Assembly (NCBI GenBank): GCA_963799485.1 | Contig: CAWCXJ010000006.1 | Coordinates: 32,001 to 96,000 of the forward strand | Length of the DNA stretch: 64,000 nucleotides | Direction of reading: 5' to 3' | Source of the DNA: an uncultured Trueperaceae bacterium | GTDB taxonomy: Bacteria; Deinococcota; Deinococci; Deinococcales; Trueperaceae | Shown here: one piece after another, positions 3,909 to 59,173 of the stretch | Position numbering within the stretch: position 1 is the first letter of the stretch | Layout of the letters: the number at the start of each line of letters is the position of its first letter | Program-made: the position numbers and the translations under genes | Notes under the pieces: generated by a model | The model's database searches: none | Seen by the model: the letters and a program-made list of their open reading frames with translations, nothing else | What the model was told of the DNA's origin: nothing

Positions 3909-3917
3909 TGCTACACT
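3909..3917 (+). promoter_or_regulatory. Candidate extended -10 promoter (TGcTACACT) of the amine/GABA operon
   Basis: TGnTACACT in the divergent alkA/GNAT intergenic region. Confidence 0.35.
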
Positions 3918-4168
3918 CACCCAAGACGGTTAAAAGGGAGCGTGAAAGTTTCAAGACAACCCTAAAGTGTGAGTAGACCAAATGGAGCCGTTTGGGTTTC
4001 GGGAGGCGAAAACTCTCGCGTAAAGGTTGTGGAGAAGCAAAAGCCACAAAAGGACTGAGCATCAAGCACTTGCTTTTGGTCTTTTCGTCCGCCCTTGTTT
4101 TCCACAATACAGTACGAACTCATGCCAGCGAACACGTTGATTAGGGCATTGTCCAGAAACGTATCGTT

Positions 4169-4918
4169 ATGAAAGGCGCAGAAAGTTCTATAGAAGTTGC
4201 AACAGGTTTAGAGGTACAGGGCTCAGCCCGTACTGAAGCCGAATACCGGGTCAAGCAAGTCGGACCCGAACACGGTCGAAGTATTCACGAAGTCGTATGT
4301 TACGCCAACAAGTTTCCGGTCGGCACCAAAGGCTGCATCAACCAGGACAATATCACCGAGATGGTGCGGCGTTTTCCCGCAGGGCAATTCGTGGTCGTGA
4401 CCGACACGCCGGAAGGTGAAAAGGTCATCGGGTTGGCGCTCGCCATGCGAACGGACTACGCCCCGTCGGCGAGACCTCTGGGGTGGCTCGAGATGATCGG
4501 CGACTTGAACCTCGCCAAACACGACCCCGAAGGCGAGTGGCTTTACGGCGTCGAAAAAGCGGTACACCCCGAGTATCAGGGGCGCGGCGTCGCGTCGGCA
4601 CTCTACAAGGCGCAGTTTGCCCTTGCGGAGCGTTTGGGGCTGAAGGGGATGTACGCGGGCGGGATGCTCAAGGGTTATGAAAGCTACCGCGAACGCCTGT
4701 CGGTACGCGAATATGCGGGCAAGGTCATGCGCGGCGAGGTCTTCGACCCGACTGTCAGCGTGCAGATGCGGCGCGGCTTCGAGCCGCGCACCGTGATTGA
4801 AAACTACGCTTGGGACAGTCAAGCCGACCATACCGGGATGCTGATCGTCTGGGAGCGACCTGAAACGGTGCGCCCGGGACCGGCCCACGGCCTAGAACTC
4901 ACCCGCTTGCAGCGGTAA
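4169..4918 (+). CDS. GNAT family N-acetyltransferase
   Basis: Acetyl-CoA motif VHPEYQGRGVASALY; FPAGQFV, HDPEGEWLYGVE and FDPTVSVQ typical of the GNAT subtype also found fused to C-N hydrolases. Confidence 0.8.
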   Translation: MKGAESSIEVATGLEVQGSARTEAEYRVKQVGPEHGRSIHEVVCYANKFPVGTKGCINQDNITEMVRRFPAGQFVVVTDTPEGEKVIGLALAMRTDYAPSARPLGWLEMIGDLNLAKHDPEGEWLYGVEKAVHPEYQGRGVASALYKAQFALAERLGLKGMYAGGMLKGYESYRERLSVREYAGKVMRGEVFDPTVSVQMRRGFEPRTVIENYAWDSQADHTGMLIVWERPETVRPGPAHGLELTRLQR

Positions 4919-4930
4919 CCCGGGAGCGCA

Positions 4931-6232
4931 ATGAAGGTTTTAATTCTCGGCGCAGGGATGGCAGGGCTGGCGGCGGCGCGGGCGCTTCAGGACGCCGGTC
5001 AACAGGTCGGCGTTCTAGAAGCGAAACACCGTCTGGGCGGACGTGTCCACACGAATTATGACTTTGCCGGTGTTCCGGTCGAGTTCGGCGCGGAGTTCGT
5101 CCACGGCGAGTGCGCCGCGACGTGGGAACTGGTACGCGAGCTGGGACTAGAGACGGTTCACTGGAACAAGCTGGACGACTCGCTGGTGAGGTTGGAGGAC
5201 GGCGCGTGGCTGAGCATGAGAGAGGCGTGCGCCACCTATCCCGACTTTGCCCAGACCCGTTCGTGGAACCTGCCCGAGGTTGACGCGCTGCCCAATGAGG
5301 ACTGGGGCAGCTACCTGCGGCGTATCGGTTTCGACCATCGGCAGCTCCGCTACGTCGAGCGCTCGTTTGCCAACGCGTGCGGCGAAGCGATGCGGTTTTT
5401 AAGTGCCAAGGCAGTTTTGGAGGGGCTCCGCGCCGAAGACGAGGGTGGGGGAGATTACCGTGTTCTGGGCGGCTACGACGCGCTCGTCAAGGCGTTGGCA
5501 GCGGGGCTGACGATTTACGGCGACGACCCTGTAACCGAACTCGTGTGGAAAGACGGCGTGCGCGTCTTGACCCTCGGCGGTGAAGTTTATGAAGCAGACG
5601 CCGCCGTCATCACCGTGCCGCTCGGCGTGTTGCAAGCCGACGCCATCCGTTTTACGCCTGAGCTACCCGAAACGAAACGCTCGGCATTTTTAGGTCTGCG
5701 GATGGGGCCGGTCATCAAGCTCGTCTACAGCTTTGACGAAGCGCCTGTTTCGCCCGATATCATGGCAGTTTACAGCCGCCTCAACCCGCCGATGTGGTGG
5801 TCGCCGTCTTACGGGTATGACACGAACCCACACGTCTGGACGGCGTTTGCGACCGGAGATTGGGCGGCTGAACTGCTGGCGCTCGGTGAAGAGGGGGCGC
5901 TTGAAGCGGGGCTCGAGTCCTTCAAAGAAGAGTTGGGCAAACCCGGTTTAGTAGCAAAAGCGGCGCGGCTCATCAACTGGCCCGACGATCCCTACACGCG
6001 CGGCGGCTACTCGTATGTGCTGCCGGGGCAGGACGGCGCACGGGAAAAACTGGCTGCGCCGACCCCGCCCCTTTACTGGGCCGGTGAAGCGGCGGCACCT
6101 GAACCCCGCGCTGCAACGGTTCACGGGGCGCTCCTGAGCGGAAGGCGGGCGGCGCTCAAGGTTCTCGCTCACACTGCTACGCCCCAAGCTAGTGCGCGTA
6201 ACGAATTACTCGAGGTTCCCAACTATGACTAA
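4931..6232 (+). CDS. Flavin-dependent amine oxidase (MAO/PAO family)
   Basis: GAGMAGLAAA, EAKHRLGGRVHT, GAEFVHG, TVPLGVL, WPDDPYTRGGYS, AGEA...TVHGALLSG. Confidence 0.88.
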   Translation: MKVLILGAGMAGLAAARALQDAGQQVGVLEAKHRLGGRVHTNYDFAGVPVEFGAEFVHGECAATWELVRELGLETVHWNKLDDSLVRLEDGAWLSMREACATYPDFAQTRSWNLPEVDALPNEDWGSYLRRIGFDHRQLRYVERSFANACGEAMRFLSAKAVLEGLRAEDEGGGDYRVLGGYDALVKALAAGLTIYGDDPVTELVWKDGVRVLTLGGEVYEADAAVITVPLGVLQADAIRFTPELPETKRSAFLGLRMGPVIKLVYSFDEAPVSPDIMAVYSRLNPPMWWSPSYGYDTNPHVWTAFATGDWAAELLALGEEGALEAGLESFKEELGKPGLVAKAARLINWPDDPYTRGGYSYVLPGQDGAREKLAAPTPPLYWAGEAAAPEPRAATVHGALLSGRRAALKVLAHTATPQASARNELLEVPNYD

Positions 6233-7508
6233 CACAGCACGTTTGCAACACCTTTCCCCCGTCTGGTCGCATCTAACGACCTTCGAGCCGGTTCGGGGCG
6301 AAGGTATCTATCTTTACGACGCGGCAGGCCACCGGCTGACCGATTTTACGTCGGGTATCGGCGTGACGAACGCAGGGCACGCGCATCCTAAAGTTGTCAA
6401 AGCCATTCAAACCCAGGCCGAGGCGCTGATCTTTGCCCAGATGAACTGCGTCGTGCCGCCCGCCGCCGTAAAACTTTCTGAACTGCTAGGCCGCATCACG
6501 CCGGAAAAGATTGACGCGTTTTTCTTCTCAAATAGCGGTGCGGAAGCCGTCGAGGGCGCGGTCAAGCTGGCGCGGCACGCCACCGGGCGAGATAACCTCA
6601 TCGTCTTTCAAGGTGGTTTTCATGGGCGCACCGCGCAGGCGATGGCGATGACGACGGCGAAAACGGGCTATCGGCATGGGTATCAGCCGCTCCCGGCAGG
6701 GGTTTTCGTCGCACCGTTTCCGTACGCGTATCAGTACGGTTGGGACGAGGTAGAGACGGTGGATTTTTGTCTGAAGCAGTTGGAACTTCTCTTCAAGACC
6801 CAAACCGCTCCGGACGAAACGGCTGCGTTGTGTCTCGAGCCCGTCCTCGGTGAGGGCGGCTACGTTCCGGCTCCGGCAGCGTTTTTACGGGCCTTGAGAG
6901 AGATTTGCGACCAACACGGTATCTTGCTCGTTTTAGACGAAGTGCAGACCGGCTTTGGGCGTACCGGCAAGCTGTTCGCGTTTGAACACGCGGGCGTGAC
7001 GCCGGATATTCTGGTGATGGCGAAGGGTTTAGGCGGTGGGTTGCCGATTAGCGCGGTGGGCGCGAGTCGCGCGCTGATGGAACGCTGGGAGACCGGCACG
7101 CACGGCGGCACCTACGGCGGCGGCAGCGCGGTGGTGCTGGCGGGCGCAAAAGCAAATGTCGAGGTCATCTTGGACGAACGTCTTTCTGAGAATGCAGCGC
7201 AAAGGGGCGAGCAATTAAGTGCCGGATTACGAGAATTGCAGGGGCGGTATCCGGTTATCGGTGAGGTGCGCGGGCCGGGGCTCATGGTCGCTACCGAGTT
7301 TACGGACGCCGACGGAAAGCCCGACAAGAAGACGTGTGAACGGGTACAGAAGGCATGTTTGGACGTGGGGCTGATGCTCCTGACCTGCGGCCCGTTTGAA
7401 AACGTCATCCGCTGGATTCCGCCGTTGGTCGTGACCAAAGCGCAGCTTGACGAAGCGTTGGGGGTTTTTACGGGGGCGTTGGCGCAAACTGCGACAGTTT
7501 CAGCTTAG
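6225..7508 (+). CDS. Class III PLP aminotransferase (omega-amine/GABA-type)
   Basis: DFTSGIGVTNAGH, NSGAEAVE, FHGRT, EPVLGEGG, DEVQTGFGRTG, MAKG; ATG 6225 overlaps the amine oxidase stop. Confidence 0.88.
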   Translation: MTNTARLQHLSPVWSHLTTFEPVRGEGIYLYDAAGHRLTDFTSGIGVTNAGHAHPKVVKAIQTQAEALIFAQMNCVVPPAAVKLSELLGRITPEKIDAFFFSNSGAEAVEGAVKLARHATGRDNLIVFQGGFHGRTAQAMAMTTAKTGYRHGYQPLPAGVFVAPFPYAYQYGWDEVETVDFCLKQLELLFKTQTAPDETAALCLEPVLGEGGYVPAPAAFLRALREICDQHGILLVLDEVQTGFGRTGKLFAFEHAGVTPDILVMAKGLGGGLPISAVGASRALMERWETGTHGGTYGGGSAVVLAGAKANVEVILDERLSENAAQRGEQLSAGLRELQGRYPVIGEVRGPGLMVATEFTDADGKPDKKTCERVQKACLDVGLMLLTCGPFENVIRWIPPLVVTKAQLDEALGVFTGALAQTATVSA

Positions 7509-7516
7509 GAGCGTGT

Positions 7517-7885
7517 ATGGTCATCGAAAAGGTCAATTTAGCAGACAAGTTTGCGTCGTTTTCCGAACACTGGAGTCCGAAAGTTATCGGTGAGGTCAAC
7601 GATGCGGCGGTCAAGCTGGCGAAGCTTTCCGGTGCGTTCGAGTGGCACTATCATGAGCGTGAAGACGAGCTGTTCTTGGTCGTTAAAGGTCAACTGGTTA
7701 TCAAATTGCGTGACCAGGATGACATTACGCTAAACGAAGGCGAGTGTGTGGTTATTCCCAGAGGCGTCGAGCATCTTCCCGTTGCCGAAAAAGAAGCGCA
7801 CGTCCTCTTTTTTGAACCCAAAACGACGCTCAACACGGGCAATGTTCAGAGTGAACGTACTGTGCGTGAACTGGAAAGGCTCTGA
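7517..7885 (+). CDS. Cupin domain protein
   Basis: WHYHEREDELF and IPRGVEH cupin motifs. Confidence 0.85.
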   Translation: MVIEKVNLADKFASFSEHWSPKVIGEVNDAAVKLAKLSGAFEWHYHEREDELFLVVKGQLVIKLRDQDDITLNEGECVVIPRGVEHLPVAEKEAHVLFFEPKTTLNTGNVQSERTVRELERL

Positions 7886-9243
7886 TGACCGTTATCCATC
7901 TCAAAACAGAAATCCCCGGCCCGAAATCTTTAGCACTCGTTGCCCGCCGCGAAACCTCGACGCCGAGGGGTGCAGCCAAGCTGACGCCGCTCGCGTTTAC
8001 CCACGCGCAAGGTGCTGCTATTACCGACGCCGACGGCAACACGCTGCTCGATTTTGCCGGTGGCATCGGAATGCTCGCCGTTGGGCACAATCACCCCAAA
8101 GTTGTCGAAGCCATTAAAGCCCAAGCCGACGCACTTATTCACCCCTGCGCCATCGTCGGCAGTTATGAGCCTTACGTTGCGCTCGCTGAAAAACTGACTC
8201 AAATTGTGCCCATTTCCGGGCCGAAAAAGGCGATTTTGCTCAACAGCGGGGCGGAAGCTGTGGAAACTGCCGTAAAAATCGCTCGAGCCCACACCGGACG
8301 CGCGGGCATCGTCGTCTTCGAGGGCGCGTATCACGGACGTACCAACCTGACGCTCGCCATGACGAGCAAATACGGGCTGTTCAAACTCGGCTTTGGGCCG
8401 TTTGCGCCGGAAGTGTACCGGTTGCCGTTTCCGAACGTTTACCGCCGCCCACAAGGGCTGAGTGAAGATGATTTTCTGACCTACGCCGTCGGTGAGTTGG
8501 AGCACGCCATGACCGCGCAGATTGACCCCTCGGCGATTGCGGCGTTCGTGCTCGAGCCCGTGCAGGGTGAAGGCGGCTTCGTCCCGATTTCCGGGCGGTT
8601 TTACCGGCGTATCCGCGAGTTATGCGACGCCCACGGTATCGTCTTGGTCGCCGACGAGATTCAGTGCGGGATGGGGCGCACCGGCAAGCTGTTCGCCTCG
8701 GAGCACTACGGCGTCGAGCCCGACCTCATGACGGCCGCAAAATCGCTGGCGGCAGGGATGCCGATTTCAGCGGTTGTCGGCAGAGCTGAGATGATGGACG
8801 CGCCGCATCCGGGCGGACTAGGCGGCACCTACAGCGGCAACCCGCTCGCGTGTGCAGCGGCCCTGGCAGCCGTAGACATTATTTCCGACCCGGATTTTTT
8901 GGCCCACGCAACTGAACTTGGAAAAAAGCTCGAGGCTCACCTGAGAGCCTTTCAGCGTGAGTTTCCGGCGATTGCCGACGTGCGCGGTCTGGGGCCGATG
9001 CTGGCGCTCGAGTTCGCCCAAAACGGTGTTCCCGACCCGGACACGACCGCTAAAGTTATCGGCGAGGCGCTCAAACGTGGCCTGATTGTTTTACGGGCCG
9101 GGTTATACAGCAACTGTTTGCGCTTTTTGCCGCCGCTCAACCTGACGGACGACGAGCTAAGCGAAGGCGTGAACGTGCTGCACGAGGCGCTTTCGGCGGT
9201 GTTTACAAATGTCTTGACAAAAGAGGCGGTCGCTAGTGACTGA
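7885..9243 (+). CDS. gabT: 4-aminobutyrate--2-oxoglutarate transaminase
   Basis: DFAGGIG, YHGRT..MTSK..K.GFGPF, EPVQGEGGF, DEIQCGMGRTG, GGLGGTYSGNP. Confidence 0.85.
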   Translation: MTVIHLKTEIPGPKSLALVARRETSTPRGAAKLTPLAFTHAQGAAITDADGNTLLDFAGGIGMLAVGHNHPKVVEAIKAQADALIHPCAIVGSYEPYVALAEKLTQIVPISGPKKAILLNSGAEAVETAVKIARAHTGRAGIVVFEGAYHGRTNLTLAMTSKYGLFKLGFGPFAPEVYRLPFPNVYRRPQGLSEDDFLTYAVGELEHAMTAQIDPSAIAAFVLEPVQGEGGFVPISGRFYRRIRELCDAHGIVLVADEIQCGMGRTGKLFASEHYGVEPDLMTAAKSLAAGMPISAVVGRAEMMDAPHPGGLGGTYSGNPLACAAALAAVDIISDPDFLAHATELGKKLEAHLRAFQREFPAIADVRGLGPMLALEFAQNGVPDPDTTAKVIGEALKRGLIVLRAGLYSNCLRFLPPLNLTDDELSEGVNVLHEALSAVFTNVLTKEAVASD

Positions 9244-51381: not shown

Positions 51382-52119
51382 TCACGGTTCAGGCGGGTTC
51401 TGCACATCTGAACCTTCTTGTACGGGGTGCGTCCGCTGTACCCGCGCGCGTCCGTAGTTACAGATGGCGAGCGCCGGACAACTACGGCAGCGCGGCGCGT
51501 TAAAGGTGCAGACGCGCTGCCCGTGCAACAGGAGCGCGATATGAAAGTTGTAGAGCAGATGCGGGTCGGGCGGCAAGAGTGCAAAAAGCGGCGCGTGCGC
51601 CGCCGTCGAGGTCTTCACCTTGGCGCTCAGGAGTCCGACGCGCTGCGACACCCGGTAGACGTGGGTATCGACCGGCAACACGGGTTTGGCAAAGCAGAAG
51701 AGCAGCACCAGTGAAGCCGTTTTGATGCCGACGCCCGGCAGCGCCGTAAGCCACGCCACGCCCTCGTCGGCGCTCAGGTCGGCTAAAAAGCTCAGATCGG
51801 TGCTGCCGCGAAGCTCGAGAATCCTCGCAATCGTCTTTTGAATCTGCGGCGCTTTGGCCGCGGCGAAGTTCGACGGTGCGATGGCGCGGGCCAGCTCCGC
51901 TGTCGGCGCGTCCTTGACGGCCTCCCATGAACCAAACTGCGCCCACATCCGGTTGTACGCGAGCTCTTCGTTTTTCCAGGTGGTGCGCTGCGACAAAATC
52001 GTCGAGATAAGTTCGTGCATCGGGTCGCGCCGGGGTTTAAGCTCGCGTTCGCCGTAGGCCCGGAGCAAGATGCGGTGCAGCTCGAGCGCTTTTTCTCTAA
52101 GCGCTGTTTGAGACTCCAT
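51382..52119 (-). CDS. Endonuclease III-family DNA glycosylase (HhH-GPD, 4Fe-4S)
   Basis: ILSQ.T, LPGVGIKTA (catalytic K), PVDTH (D), C-x6-C-x2-C-x5-C. Confidence 0.88.
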   Translation of the reverse strand: MESQTALREKALELHRILLRAYGERELKPRRDPMHELISTILSQRTTWKNEELAYNRMWAQFGSWEAVKDAPTAELARAIAPSNFAAAKAPQIQKTIARILELRGSTDLSFLADLSADEGVAWLTALPGVGIKTASLVLLFCFAKPVLPVDTHVYRVSQRVGLLSAKVKTSTAAHAPLFALLPPDPHLLYNFHIALLLHGQRVCTFNAPRCRSCPALAICNYGRARVQRTHPVQEGSDVQNPPEP

Positions 52120-52181
52120 AAACGCCAGTCTGCCGGTCGGTAGCCCCGCAAAACAATAAGGCAGCACGCCTTTACGTTTTC

Positions 52182-55433: not shown

Positions 55434-55715
55434 CTATGGGCCTTGGTACCGCACCACTTCAGCGCGGTAGCCGAGTGCGTAAGCGAGTGCGAGCGCTAAA
55501 AGCACCAGCAAAAACACGCCTCTCGCTAAGAAAAAAACGAGCAGCGCCCCGATAACGACGTAACTTAGTGATATCCGGAACAAAGTTTTGCCCGACTTGT
55601 CACGCCCGACCACCCGGCGGCGGTTGCCGGATTCAAAGGCGCTGCGCAGCAGGCGACTCGCCAGCTTAAAGCTTCGTTTCGCTTCGGTTTCAACACGTTC
55701 CGACCAGTTTGCCAC
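55434..55715 (-). CDS. DUF4342-like small membrane protein
   Basis: GN.RRVV..D..G.TL..I.L followed by a hydrophobic hairpin; GGAGG RBS. Confidence 0.55.
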   Translation of the reverse strand: MANWSERVETEAKRSFKLASRLLRSAFESGNRRRVVGRDKSGKTLFRISLSYVVIGALLVFFLARGVFLLVLLALALAYALGYRAEVVRYQGP

Positions 55716-55760
55716 AGCGGGCCTCCAAAAAGAGTATAGCAAGGCGGCCCGCAGCGTTCG

Positions 55761-55943
55761 TTAGAACTGGTCGTAATTACAAAGTGGCGGTACCGAGGTC
55801 ACCGGCACAGTGAGAGCTAAAAGCGCGAGGTAACGTGCTTCTTCACCGTCGGCAGCGCGTTCGCTTTTGTGTCCGTCATGACGCAAGTAAAGTTCCAACA
55901 TCTCGGCGATTTCGCGGTCGTCTTCTACGACCAAAAGGGCCAT
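55761..55943 (-). pseudogene. Truncated response-regulator receiver domain
   Basis: LLVVEDDREIAEML..YL..DG......ADGEEA, then no phosphoacceptor Asp region or output domain. Confidence 0.65.
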
Positions 55944-56116
55944 ACGACCTCCGGCGCGGATTCACGCTACGCACCGCACGGCGTCGGCGCTAGTCACGAT
56001 GCTGCTGTGCCGCAGTCGACACTTAGACAAGCCCTTCACCGTAGTCAGGCATCCAGAGCATGCTCAAAGGCTCCGCAGCGTGCCAGAGAAGCCGACTGCA
56101 TCTGAGGGCGTCAACT

Positions 56117-58855
56117 TCACAAGACCGCTATTCCGGTGATGTAGCCGATACGGATATAACGGTGTGCGCTCTTGCCGAGCGTTTTTCCTGTCAGGTATGG
56201 CGTCGCCCCGGCGTACACGACCGACTCGGGGGCGATTTTCTCGGTTACGAGTTTACCTTTCGACTTTTTGGTATAACCGTAACGGTCGTAGCTCTCCTTT
56301 TCCTGATGGTAGCGCAGCTCGAGCGACCTACCTTCGCTGATGGTCGCCTGGATCAGCACCCGCATCTTGCGGGTATCCAGACCGTTTTGCATGATGCTGC
56401 CCTGGACTGCTTGCGGTTTGATGTGGGGCGCGAAGCCCTCTGAAAGCTTCACGCCGAGGTCGGACAGGCGTTGCTCGAGACCTTCCTGGTGACCTTCTGC
56501 GACGAGATAGCTGGTGTCGTTGAGCTGCTGTCCAAGATGCTGTGCAATCCCTGGGTGTTTGGCGAGTGCGGTGGCGCTCGGGTGCTGAAAGACACTGATT
56601 TTCGCTAATGCAGGCGCGGTACTCCTGCCCTCCCAGATGTTCATGAGCGCCTCGAGCTGTGGCGGAAGACCACCTTTTGCTCTGGCAGTTAACGTTTCTC
56701 GCGCGGCGGTGTTGAGTGTCCCGGCACGGATTGCAGCGACGTCCAAATGATAGGTTCCGTCAAGGTCTTGCGTGGCGAGTTGCGCTAACACCGCTCGGCC
56801 CGCCAAGTCGGTCGCTCCCTCGAGCTGAAAATGTCCTTCGGGATGAAACCTAAGCGTGCGGGCCGGTGCGAGGTTGTACTGATGACGCACGCTGACCTTG
56901 AGCTGTTTAGGTACGGTTTCCAGCAACAAGAAGCGTTCAGCTACGGCGCTAGCATCCTTGAAGGTATTCAAGGCAGCGTCGCGCTCGCCCTGGCTGGTGT
57001 ACTCGAGCAACTTGACCCTTTCCCGAACGTGTAACCGCTCACGGCGGGACGCCCAATCTCTCAGGCTGCGGGCCACATTATCAGGCACGCCCCTGCTGTG
57101 ATCTTGCAGTAGTTTGAGCAGCGCCTCGAGCTCGAGCCCGGCTTCGAGTGCCCGGTAGAGGCTTGAACGCGTGATGGTATAGCTGGCGGTCTGCGCGTCG
57201 ACGCGGGTACAATCTGCACAACCAAGCGCAGTGATGGCGAGCGGACTGAGCTCACCTAAATACACGAGGATGTCGAAGTTCGGCTGAATCAGCAGGCTGG
57301 GTTTATTTGGCTTGCCCGTGTCGGGGTCCAAACCCAAGAACCGGCGAAACTGCTCGACGTCTGGAGGCTGCTTGGCGCCTTGCAGATGTTGGCCTTGTGC
57401 CAGCCAGGTGAGCCCCAGCCCGGGCATCACCGCATACCGGTAGGCCGGATCGCCCTCGGAAGGTGCCATGAGCCTCTCCACCTTGTCGCCTCTCATAGTG
57501 TGGAGGCCGCCACGGGCAGGTTTAGCGGGTTTGGCTGCCACCTCCGGCAATTCAGCTACCGCGACCAAGCCCAGATCATGAAACGCGCCCAGCAGCACGT
57601 CGGTGAACCAGGCGGGACGTTCCGGTTGGGTATCAGGTGCCTTCCAGTGCCGGACCCGGGGGCTGAGCACACACTTGAGTGCCCGCTGCCAGAGACCCTC
57701 GAGCGCCCGCTCCAGCGGTACGGGATAGTCTGGTAACACCGCCAGACTCGCTAGCAGCGCCCGTCCCGCGACCGTCTCGGAGATCAATGAGTGGCGCCCA
57801 CCCCACGGGCCGTCGTCGGAGAGCTCTACGGCGTTTGGGAGCGCCTCGACCATAAAGCTATAAGAAACGACCAGCGGCGCATCCTGAAGCTTGCGTAGGC
57901 GTGGTAAGTTGACCCGCCAAGGGTCCTTCGTAGAACCGCTCTCAGGCGCGTCCAGCAGCCCCAGTGCGAAAGCGAGCCGTAACAAACGCTCCAGACGCGG
58001 CTCCAACCACGTTCTGCGTTTGATTAGGCGTGACAGTACCCGTTTGCTAGGCGTGCCGTTTTGGGTGATCTGCAAACCGCCCTCTTCTAGCACGAGCTGC
58101 GTCACATCGAAAAGCTCGAGCAAGGTCTGCAGCGGATGAGGTGAGCTCGGAGTTACGGCGCTAAGCGGTTCGAGCGCGAGCGTAGGCGGCAAAGGCGAAG
58201 GCTCATCAGGTAATCTGGCCAGGATTCGGGAATCGGTAAAGACGAGGTCGTCGGCTGCACCTTGCTCACTGGCGTAATAGTATGAGGTCGCAAACCACGG
58301 TGCGTGGTTGCCGGCGGGTATGAGAAGCCCGTCGCGCAGCAGCACGCCCAAATACCCTATACCGGGCGCGTGACCGAAATAATCCTTGTAAACGCTGGTG
58401 CCGGGGCGTTCCACCGGCTCGCGGCCGTGCAGCGCTGCCTGAACAATGAGCGCCCAGCCGTCCATCACGCCGCCGCGCCTTTTGACTTCACCTAGTAGCG
58501 CCCGCTCGAGTGGGCTCAGGTCGGCGATCAGCTTGTCTAGTAGTGATGCTTTACTCAGCGCCTGAACGACGGCTTTTTTGCTCTCCGCCACGCGACCGGC
58601 GTTCGCGCTTGGGTTGAAGCGTTTGGCTACCAGCTTGAGCTGATCGGCGTTCATATGCTCGAGCATGGCGTCGAGTCTGACTTCAGCCCTACGCGGCGGC
58701 GCGTTTTGACTAGACGCTACTACGTCGGTGCCGAGCACTTCTTTATTGCCGACACCCGCGCCTAGCGCGCGGAGACTCTCGGCCAGGTCAGCGGGTAAAC
58801 TCTCCAGATCACCTGCTTCTATCAGCTTGGCTAACAGCGCATCAAGGTCTCTCAC
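56117..58855 (-). CDS. XPB-associated protein: Helicase_C_3 (p52/Tfb2 clutch-like) domain plus C-terminal WYL-like domain
   Basis: LLIQPNFDILV...YTITRSSLYRALEAG...VPDNVARSLRDW; C-terminal IQATISEGRSLELRY...IAP......YL.G......R.IRI.YI. Confidence 0.7.
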   Translation of the reverse strand: MRDLDALLAKLIEAGDLESLPADLAESLRALGAGVGNKEVLGTDVVASSQNAPPRRAEVRLDAMLEHMNADQLKLVAKRFNPSANAGRVAESKKAVVQALSKASLLDKLIADLSPLERALLGEVKRRGGVMDGWALIVQAALHGREPVERPGTSVYKDYFGHAPGIGYLGVLLRDGLLIPAGNHAPWFATSYYYASEQGAADDLVFTDSRILARLPDEPSPLPPTLALEPLSAVTPSSPHPLQTLLELFDVTQLVLEEGGLQITQNGTPSKRVLSRLIKRRTWLEPRLERLLRLAFALGLLDAPESGSTKDPWRVNLPRLRKLQDAPLVVSYSFMVEALPNAVELSDDGPWGGRHSLISETVAGRALLASLAVLPDYPVPLERALEGLWQRALKCVLSPRVRHWKAPDTQPERPAWFTDVLLGAFHDLGLVAVAELPEVAAKPAKPARGGLHTMRGDKVERLMAPSEGDPAYRYAVMPGLGLTWLAQGQHLQGAKQPPDVEQFRRFLGLDPDTGKPNKPSLLIQPNFDILVYLGELSPLAITALGCADCTRVDAQTASYTITRSSLYRALEAGLELEALLKLLQDHSRGVPDNVARSLRDWASRRERLHVRERVKLLEYTSQGERDAALNTFKDASAVAERFLLLETVPKQLKVSVRHQYNLAPARTLRFHPEGHFQLEGATDLAGRAVLAQLATQDLDGTYHLDVAAIRAGTLNTAARETLTARAKGGLPPQLEALMNIWEGRSTAPALAKISVFQHPSATALAKHPGIAQHLGQQLNDTSYLVAEGHQEGLEQRLSDLGVKLSEGFAPHIKPQAVQGSIMQNGLDTRKMRVLIQATISEGRSLELRYHQEKESYDRYGYTKKSKGKLVTEKIAPESVVYAGATPYLTGKTLGKSAHRYIRIGYITGIAVL

Positions 58856-58856
58856 C

Positions 58857-59141
58857 TCAGCTCACTTTCGGCGTATGCCCGGCTTTAAGCAGCGCCTTAA
58901 GCAACGCTTGGCTGTGCTGCGGCAGCACCACGGCTTCGGTTGGAGACAACCGCGTCAGGATGAAGTCTTTAAGGCGCGCGTCAGCCTGTATAGCAGTGAG
59001 GTCGGCTGCATCCGCCACTGTGACCAGTGTCAGGCCTTCGTGTAGGACCACCTCGCCCGCCACCGGAACCGGCTCGAGCTGTGCTGCTTGTGAGGATACA
59101 GCCGCATCGGCCGGCGTGCGCTTGGCTTTTCTAGCTGGCAT
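58857..59141 (-). CDS. Small hypothetical protein, p8/Tfb5-like fold predicted
   Basis: GAGGAG RBS; stop abuts the next start; EGLTLVTVAD...LKDFILTRLSPTEAVV...ALLKALLKAG. Confidence 0.6.
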   Translation of the reverse strand: MPARKAKRTPADAAVSSQAAQLEPVPVAGEVVLHEGLTLVTVADAADLTAIQADARLKDFILTRLSPTEAVVLPQHSQALLKALLKAGHTPKVS

Positions 59142-59173
59142 ACGAACTCCTCGACACCAAGTCGTGAATGACG

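Follow-up and report, generated by a model that had tools for sequence, protein, structure and literature searches.

The window analysed here, a stretch of 64,000 nucleotides (nt) on contig CAWCXJ010000006.1 of an uncultured Trueperaceae bacterium, encodes a protein of 94 amino acids (aa) between an XPB helicase and a 912-aa protein that resembles p52/Tfb2 and is called BIG below. We regard this small protein as probably the bacterial p8-like subunit of an XPB/p52-like/p8-like module, one that works like the p8/Tfb5 subunit of TFIIH and is likely to be related to it. The genes of the cluster were read as follows.

59174 to 60904, minus strand: gene of the XPB helicase (576 aa), which opens the cluster.
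59147 to 59152, minus strand: Shine-Dalgarno-like GAGGAG, read from the sequence, 5 nt upstream of the ATG of the 94-aa gene.
58857 to 59141, minus strand: gene of the 94-aa p8/Tfb5-like protein, stop codon included, an open reading frame (ORF) with an ATG start.
56117 to 58855, minus strand: gene of the 912-aa p52/Tfb2-like protein (BIG), third in the cluster, with a GTG start as assigned by the ORF finder.

The genes are tightly packed. The XPB stop codon and the ATG of the 94-aa gene are separated by 32 nt, and the GTG that the ORF finder assigned to BIG starts 1 nt past the TGA of the 94-aa gene. No terminator-like sites were found on the minus strand between the three genes. A sigma-70-like promoter was not found on the minus strand from 55600 to 61400 either, in a scan that is uninformative for this phylum. 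XPB scored 809.6 bits on NCBIfam NF045503 (repair_heli_XPB, cut-off 610) and thus passed the equivalog cut-off; its Pfam domains are Helicase_C_3 at residues 8-136, ResIII and ERCC3_RAD25_C. From the gene neighbourhood, we infer that the small protein forms one assembly with XPB and BIG.

The distribution of the small gene was compared with that of its neighbours. It was carried by 8 of 41 related genomes, which were exactly those with a true XPB (six over the family cut-off and two cut by contig ends), and the order XPB, small gene, large gene was kept in all eight wherever the contig reached far enough. Across the collection, 29 loci were collected in a scan that was seeded by the pattern Lx[KR]AGHTPKV and is hence biased to relatives keeping this motif. 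They span at least seven phyla, with records of Trueperaceae/Deinococcales (Deinococcota), Deltaproteobacteria, Gammaproteobacteria, Proteobacteria, Actinomycetota, Acidobacteria, Anaerolineae/Chloroflexota and Planctomycetota. By tblastn, XPB was adjacent in 26 of the 29 (all except L025, L026 and L033) and a BIG relative in 28, the contig ending at the remaining one, L028. XPB lies on another contig in the genomes of L026 and L033, and at L025 and L033 the small and large genes form a pair with no XPB adjacent. Among 151 sampled Actinomycetota genomes, 12 gave a match to the family profile, all of them within the 22 that were XPB-positive. A preliminary description of this DNA, made from its letters, had named the lack of conserved homologues beside XPB genes as an outcome that would end its proposal; such homologues were present in all eight carrier genomes and at those 26 loci. 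At L026 (2116-4391, plus strand, Actinomycetota), two genes come after the large/small pair, one for a YhcG/DUF1016 PD-(D/E)XK nuclease and one of the WGR/ATP-dependent-ligase-like kind, and no XPB is present on that contig.

BIG was then considered as a possible p52 counterpart. It matched Pfam Helicase_C_3 at residues 521-614 (E 3.9e-12), as did 35 of 35 members of its family, and 7 of the 35 also matched WYL. Pfam Tfb2 (PF03849) gave no match for BIG of the window, and 13 of the 35 family members matched this model below its 34.5-bit cut-off (best E 3.4e-6, 26.7 bits). Residues 505-912 were modelled with a predicted local distance difference test (pLDDT) value of 87.5, and in the model a clutch-like domain is followed by module A (615-645) and another such domain by module B (755-799), after which the chain continues through a helix and a beta-barrel. 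The parts are placed as follows.

57035 to 57319, minus strand: first clutch-like domain of BIG, residues 513-607, modelled with the fold of the XPB N-terminal domain and the p52 clutch.
56873 to 57034, minus strand: module A of BIG, residues 608-661, beta-alpha-beta-beta without the last helix, putative equivalent of the p52 C-terminal domain (CTD).
56435 to 56854, minus strand: second clutch-like domain and module B of BIG, residues 668-807; module B (755-799) is a complete beta-alpha-beta-beta-alpha unit, the one quoted in the preliminary description.
56120 to 56383, minus strand: WYL-type beta-barrel at the C-terminal end of BIG, residues 825-912.

The top Foldseek matches for the BIG model were human p52 chains (E 1.2e-5), followed by XPB and WYL regulators. 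In VIA comparisons, BIG 513-607 superposed on human XPB 71-163 (6ro4_A) with Z 14.5 and a root-mean-square deviation (rmsd) of 1.7 over 90 aligned residues, and BIG 517-656 superposed on the clutch and CTD of human p52 (residues 303-458, 7nvv_2) with Z 12.8 and rmsd 4.1 over 137-138 aligned residues. The available part of PMC6422496 describes the p52 clutch and the XPB N-terminal domain as a pseudo-symmetric dimer. The C-terminal barrel (825-912) gave VIA Z values of 9.5-10.3 to the WYL domains of PafBC, BrxR, DriD and CapW, and seven non-Deinococcota partners with a tblastn match to the C-terminal half of BIG aligned only up to residues 802-818. Neither Pfam nor fold searches detected a nuclease domain in the large or the small partner. 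As modelled, BIG is p52-like, with a clutch domain followed by a CTD of the p8-binding type.

The available part of PMC7708078 states that p8 and the p52 CTD of TFIIH have a common fold and associate by strand pairing. The complex of BIG 505-830 with residues 28-94 of the small protein was predicted, each partner being given as its own unpaired alignment. The complex score was 0.87 (runs 0.85, 0.87 and 0.89), compared with 0.00 for the best of three controls; such a score is a model confidence and may reflect memory of solved Tfb5-Tfb2 complexes. Of 157 solved complexes, 116 had reached a mark of 0.87, as had 2 of 215 mismatched pairs; these counts are rough given the custom alignments. Contact agreement among the runs was at least 95%, and the partner pLDDT was at least 88. 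The predicted contacts lie at 604-620, 638-661, 563-571, 683-692 and 715-721 of BIG and at 28-44, 58-77 and 89-94 of the small protein. The best-defined pairs (BIG/small protein) are 611/39, 610/40, 616/34 and 618/32, and the predicted pairing is antiparallel between BIG strand 609-618 and residues 32-41 of the small protein. The C-terminal motif AGHTPKV of the small protein is placed in the interface, with residues 92 and 93 touching BIG 610. The predicted docking site is module A (~604-661), the segment that superposes on the p52 CTD. The unit quoted in the preliminary description (BIG 753-801, module B) is a different one; the prediction places the site at the earlier, truncated copy. These results support docking of the small protein on the modelled p52-CTD equivalent of BIG.

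The fold of the small protein itself was predicted with AlphaFold2 from a 17-row alignment. Two features are needed here.

58860 to 59051, minus strand: folded core of the 94-aa protein, residues 31-94, beta-alpha-beta-beta-alpha in the AlphaFold2 model.
58863 to 58883, minus strand: C-terminal motif AGHTPKV, residues 87-93, from the alignment of 17 relatives.

In the core, ten-residue blocks from 41 to 90 averaged pLDDT 81-84, and the elements were strand 38-41, helix 45-53, strand 61-64, strand 69-72 and helix 74-86. Both helices that had been guessed from the letters therefore appear in the model. Yeast Tfb5 took Foldseek ranks 2 and 3 with a probability of 0.98-0.99 (5oqj_5: E 0.07, probability 0.99, rmsd 2.3 over 49 columns, 24% identity; 3dom_B: E 0.079). 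In the VIA representative-wide search, where a Z under 8 may mean only a common arrangement, the best Z was 6.8 for a procarboxypeptidase pro-domain, and Tfb5 (7o4i_5) reached Z 6.1 with 56 of 65 residues and fungal p8 (6trs_D) Z 5.7. After VIA re-ranking, Tfb5 3dgp_B gave Z 6.6 with rmsd 2.3 and 54 of 63 residues, and 3dom_B gave Z 6.6 with 56 of 58; these two superpositions had rmsd 2.3-2.5 and 20-21% identity. Human p8 reached Z 6.0-6.2 and human p52 402-459 (9pcp_D) Z 5.4, the latter with rmsd 2.6 over 55 aligned residues. Among the 50 matches listed in each of three fold searches of the small-protein model, XPB chains did not occur, which does not speak against a likeness to the XPB module. 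The preliminary description had staked its proposal on a fold related to Tfb5, and the modelled core does have the same topology, with Tfb5 and p8 among its top structural matches. In this model, the core of the 94-aa protein has the Tfb5 fold; the fold is a widespread one, however, and the scores by themselves are not specific to Tfb5.

Direct sequence comparison added a suggestive link. When a profile of 86 relatives was searched against PDB sequences, five constructs of yeast Tfb5 were found at E 0.0088-0.014, with profile positions 14-61 covering Tfb5 8-55 in a single run that has no gap, and yeast Tfb5 was the best-scoring natural protein. The p8/Tfb5-like pattern claimed in the preliminary description stands as far as the predicted fold and the gene setting are concerned, but the direct sequence kinship behind it is weak (E ~0.01, to yeast Tfb5 only, with no Pfam match).

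The preliminary description had also suggested one duplicated module as a possible building block of all three proteins. Its quoted strings were all located: VLHEGLTLVTVAD at residues 32-44 and LKDFILTRLSPTEAVV at 57-72 of the 94-aa protein; LVLEV at 107-111, VAPLLGERLTKRSFTV at 128-143 and IKQALLEVG at 151-159 of XPB; and ISVFQ at 753-757, IAQHLGQQLNDTSYLV at 770-785 and LEQRLSDLG at 793-801 of BIG. An 86-row alignment of the stand-alone family was compared by hhalign with 19 XPB N-termini, with 24 C-terminal halves of BIG proteins and with the BIG N-terminal half as a control. Query residues 22-92 aligned with XPB 77-163 at a probability of 88.2% (E 3e-6). The probability was 92.2% for BIG 731-807 (E 5.9e-7) and 41% for BIG 591-666 (E 2.8e-4), and the control gave a non-significant 0.3%. 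At the profile level, the proposal of a shared module holds. The XPB part of it is placed as follows.

60416 to 60607, minus strand: module before the XPB helicase core, residues ~100-163, resembling the 94-aa protein by hhalign.

This XPB segment shows the same order of predicted elements as the core of the 94-aa protein, and it sits at what we take to be, from position and structures, the place of the damage recognition domain (DRD) of archaeal XPB. The comparisons support the view that the small protein is a free-standing copy of a module that XPB has ahead of its helicase core and BIG has behind both of its clutch-like domains.

The same module also ends larger bacterial proteins. Searched by hmmsearch against 1.84 billion proteins, the family profile matched the extreme C-termini of 11 scanned proteins among those listed, 475-803 aa in length (E 6.5e-7 to 2e-5); Helicase_C_3 is present in every one of the 11, and 10 have G[HY]TP[KR] at their end. 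Among the stand-alone relatives, 5 of 86 touched Pfam Helicase_C_3, with a best E of 0.051. The Chloroflexota loci L036-L038 encode, between XPB and the BIG relative, a 765-aa protein that ends in this module. These Chloroflexota/Caldilineaceae records have two large Helicase_C_3 proteins of 765 and 789 aa after XPB (3916-6213 and 6203-8572), the first being the natural fused form. Two database proteins, P0139 (296 aa) and P0176 (147 aa), have the small-protein module attached directly to an incomplete XPB helicase part; these are either real fusions or artefacts of assembly or gene calling.

Such proteins lead to the alternative that the small protein is an analogue and not a homologue of p8, namely a split-off C-terminal module of bacterial Helicase_C_3 proteins that gained a p8-like pairing independently. 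Its strongest similarities are indeed bacterial (the 92% and 88% of the profile comparison), its likeness to Tfb5 is marginal, and the C-terminal matches in the 475-803-aa proteins, most with the G[HY]TP[KR] end, as well as the fused 765-aa form, agree with an origin of this kind. However, BIG superposes on the p52 clutch together with the CTD (the Z of 12.8 given above) and XPB is a true orthologue, so that a shared three-part module is more economical than convergence of one part; moreover, Tfb5 was the best natural protein in the PDB sequence search. We consider this alternative unlikely.

A number of results weigh against the reading as a p8-like subunit, apart from the possible memory effect in the complex score. 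In sequence, the 94-aa protein had no Pfam or NCBIfam family match (an ACT_3 hit at E 0.11 was not usable). Pfam Tfb5 (PF06331) gave no match at E <= 1, so its gathering score was not reached, and only 2 of 86 relatives touched this model, with a best E of 0.068. Because the Pfam Tfb5 model was not reached, membership in the Tfb5 family is not established. The profile of 17 relatives gave no match to PDB sequences at E <= 10. With the profile of 86, the top three matches were de novo designed TIM barrels, which are repeat artefacts and had no single stretch passing, and human p8 was not listed at E <= 10. Given artefacts on top, a single yeast protein below them and human p8 unlisted, an E of about 0.01 is near noise. 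In structure, Foldseek gave no match for the 94-aa model at E <= 1e-3, and the Z of 6.6 for Tfb5 was tied with YebC and acyltransferase inserts and equalled by procarboxypeptidase pro-domains. In distribution, XPB was not adjacent at 3 of 29 loci. Among the 22 XPB-positive Actinomycetota genomes, 10 had no profile match and only 4 had a strong match in a short reading frame (85-93 aa); the Actinomycetota counts indicate that the small gene is tied to XPB but not universal with it. To our knowledge, eukaryotic p8 has neither the basic tail nor the AGHTPKV motif, and the tail is a difference that counts here as well. Finally, the small protein is closer to the bacterial modules (probability 88-92%) than to Tfb5, and an independent bacterial duplication could have converged on the p8 role.

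A wider claim can be built on the p8-like reading: the TFIIH bottom lobe, in which XPB is held by p52 and p8, would be an ancient three-gene prokaryotic module that was kept as a bacterial operon; p8, the p52 CTD and the XPB pre-core module would derive from one duplicated beta-alpha-beta-beta-alpha unit, and the small protein would be an orthologue-grade relative of p8. We rate this claim a little short of even. If it is true, the bacterial p52-like protein should become unstable when the small protein is lost, in the way that TFIIH is destabilised by TTD-A mutations.

It may also be asked whether the small protein acts on XPB directly, by pairing with or replacing the XPB pre-core module or by binding helicase domain 2 (HD2). 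The profile likeness to XPB 77-163 (probability 88%) and the position of the small gene directly after XPB would suit such an action, and contacts of eukaryotic p8 with HD2 and the thumb motif of XPB are described as well (PMC7708078, in its available part). On the other hand, the predicted complex with the large protein scored 0.87 against 0.00 for controls, and the small gene accompanies BIG (28 of 29 loci) more than XPB (26 of 29), with the pair occurring apart from XPB at L025 and L033. Binding to BIG and binding to XPB are compatible with each other; as the explanation of the small protein, direct action on XPB seems decidedly improbable.

The N-terminal part of the small protein raised a further alternative.

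59052 to 59141, minus strand: N-terminal tail of the 94-aa protein, residues 1-30, basic, variable and predicted to be disordered.

The tail begins MPARKAKRTPA..., and its pLDDT is below 50 at residues 1-3 and 5-30, in agreement with the basic, disordered N-terminus of the preliminary description. Its length and sequence vary among aligned relatives, and it is the least conserved part of the protein. An RGRP-type (AT-hook-like) motif was found in the tails of 8 of 132 representative relatives shorter than 200 aa; the copy in the window has no such motif. RGRP tails were noted in P0063, P0073, P0076, P0077, P0079, P0081, P0089 and P0109 and at locus L008 (1483-1836, minus strand). The long N-terminal tails with RGRP in some stand-alone relatives suggest DNA contact. 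The protein might act on DNA by itself, binding it or sensing damage as a stand-alone 'damage recognition domain' that has a basic tail and is merely co-transcribed with XPB, and it does resemble the XPB segment at the archaeal DRD position (for the name DRD, see the available parts of PMC3353954 and PMC13024598). Nevertheless, its most conserved parts, AGHTPKV and strand 1, sit in the predicted protein-protein interface, and the tail is absent in some relatives. We consider this alternative very improbable.

The 94-aa ORF is a real gene, as judged from the Shine-Dalgarno site, the tight spacing, the third-codon-position variation and the relatives. Thirty relatives of 62-99 aa were found at E <= 6e-26. 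Where these have recorded names, they are called 'hypothetical protein', except P0028 (63 aa), which is named after a membrane protein. The profile of 17 relatives retrieved 252 representative clusters at E <= 1e-3 and 58 at E <= 1e-10 from the 1.84 billion proteins. Residues A87, G88, H89, T90 and P91 are invariant and V93 is nearly invariant in the 17 relatives; 62 of 150 listed representatives have GHTP[KR] among their last 25 residues, and 115 of 150 have the looser G[HYQ]xP[KRQST]. A protein atlas search returned unnamed bacterial clusters of 80-88 aa and one cluster, with a score of 0.80, in which half of the members have Helicase_C_3. Differences between the 94-aa gene and 10 orthologues numbered 209, 100 and 400 at codon positions 1, 2 and 3. 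A look for sequence data sets covering the operon listed no RNA set, and the best DNA set contained 0.39 of the sampled words. A chance ORF has next to no probability: the window is 59% G+C and holds many overlapping ORFs of similar length on both strands, but this one is conserved at a fixed position across at least seven phyla and in those 252 clusters, with a third-codon-position excess, a Shine-Dalgarno site and a confident fold.

A defence-system reading, suggested by the WYL domain and by weak PbeA helicase matches to XPB, was set aside; PADLOC gave no match for the 94-aa protein or BIG, and XPB lies over its equivalog cut-off.

For the p8-like subunit, a mechanism can be proposed from the predicted complex. 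The small protein would add its first strand (32-41) antiparallel to BIG strand 609-618. This addition may complete and stabilise the truncated module A after the first clutch-like domain, which would be the position of the p8/p52-CTD pairing. According to the available part of PMC7708078, the ATPase of XPB is activated by p52 and raised about twofold more by p8, which also contacts HD2 of XPB. By analogy with p52 and p8 in TFIIH, bacterial XPB would be held by the p52-like/p8-like pair, and this pair would modulate the ATPase and translocase activity of the helicase. In this lineage, the WYL domain of BIG might provide a single-stranded-DNA input, and the basic tail of the small protein might contact DNA. 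We likewise infer physical binding, an effect on XPB, a role in repair and common ancestry with eukaryotic p8.

The surroundings of the operon were also inspected. Short ORFs lie directly upstream of XPB (61036-62309, plus strand), one of them with a weak DDE_5 transposase match (E 1.1e-4, below cut-off), and together they look like a decayed insertion element. Along with the patchy presence of the operon (8 of 41 related genomes), this hints at horizontal transfer. Downstream, a 60-aa ORF (55761-55943, minus strand) reads like the first part of a response-regulator receiver domain, has no Pfam match and is perhaps a remnant; beside it, a 102-aa protein (55434-55742, minus strand) has a weak DUF4342 match (E 3.4e-5). 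An HhH-GPD base-excision glycosylase gene (51382-52167, minus strand, E 1.7e-14) lies some 4 kb past the downstream end of the operon, from which it is separated by other genes (DivIC-like, carboxyl transferase and short-chain dehydrogenase).

In its available part, a 2012 paper states that p44 and p52 homologues had not been found in bacteria (PMC3353954), and in the accessible part of a 2026 review (PMC13024598) what XPB does in bacteria is termed 'more elusive'. Our literature search, outside which most subscription journals lay, found no paper on bacterial p52-like or p8-like proteins. A conserved XPB/p52-like/p8-like operon would give bacterial XPB defined partners and a simple three-protein system in which the switching-on of XPB by p52 and p8 could be studied. 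It would also bear on the origin of the TFIIH core, and it would put a name to a widespread family of 60-170-aa 'hypothetical proteins' that lies outside all Pfam and NCBIfam models.

Among known systems, the closest comparison is with TFIIH p8/TTDA/Tfb5 (GTF2H5; PF06331; PDB 3DOM, 3DGP and 6TRS). The core size (~60-65 residues) and the beta-alpha-beta-beta-alpha order are the same, the modelled small protein superposes on nearly the whole of Tfb5, and the alignment to Tfb5 8-55 is gapless. Like p8, the small protein is encoded along with XPB and a p52-like protein, and it is predicted to pair through a strand with the domain after the clutch. Unlike p8, it is bacterial and operon-encoded, occurs in only part of the XPB-bearing bacteria, lacks a significant Pfam Tfb5 match and has a 30-residue basic tail and a conserved C-terminal AGHTPKV. 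The CTD of p52/Tfb2 has the same fold, and the module likewise forms the C-terminal end of listed p52-like (Helicase_C_3) proteins; here, however, it is a separate polypeptide, and BIG has an equivalent without the last helix (615-645) and a complete second copy at 755-799. The XPB pre-core module matches at a profile-profile probability of 88%, but it is an integral part of XPB, placed between the N-terminal domain and helicase domain 1. Archaeal XPB-Bax1 is likewise a prokaryotic XPB with a dedicated adjacent partner that modulates its ATPase, as described in the available part of PMC13024598. Bax1 differs in being a nuclease and in binding to the thumb motif and HD2; the partners here are a p52-like and a p8-like protein.

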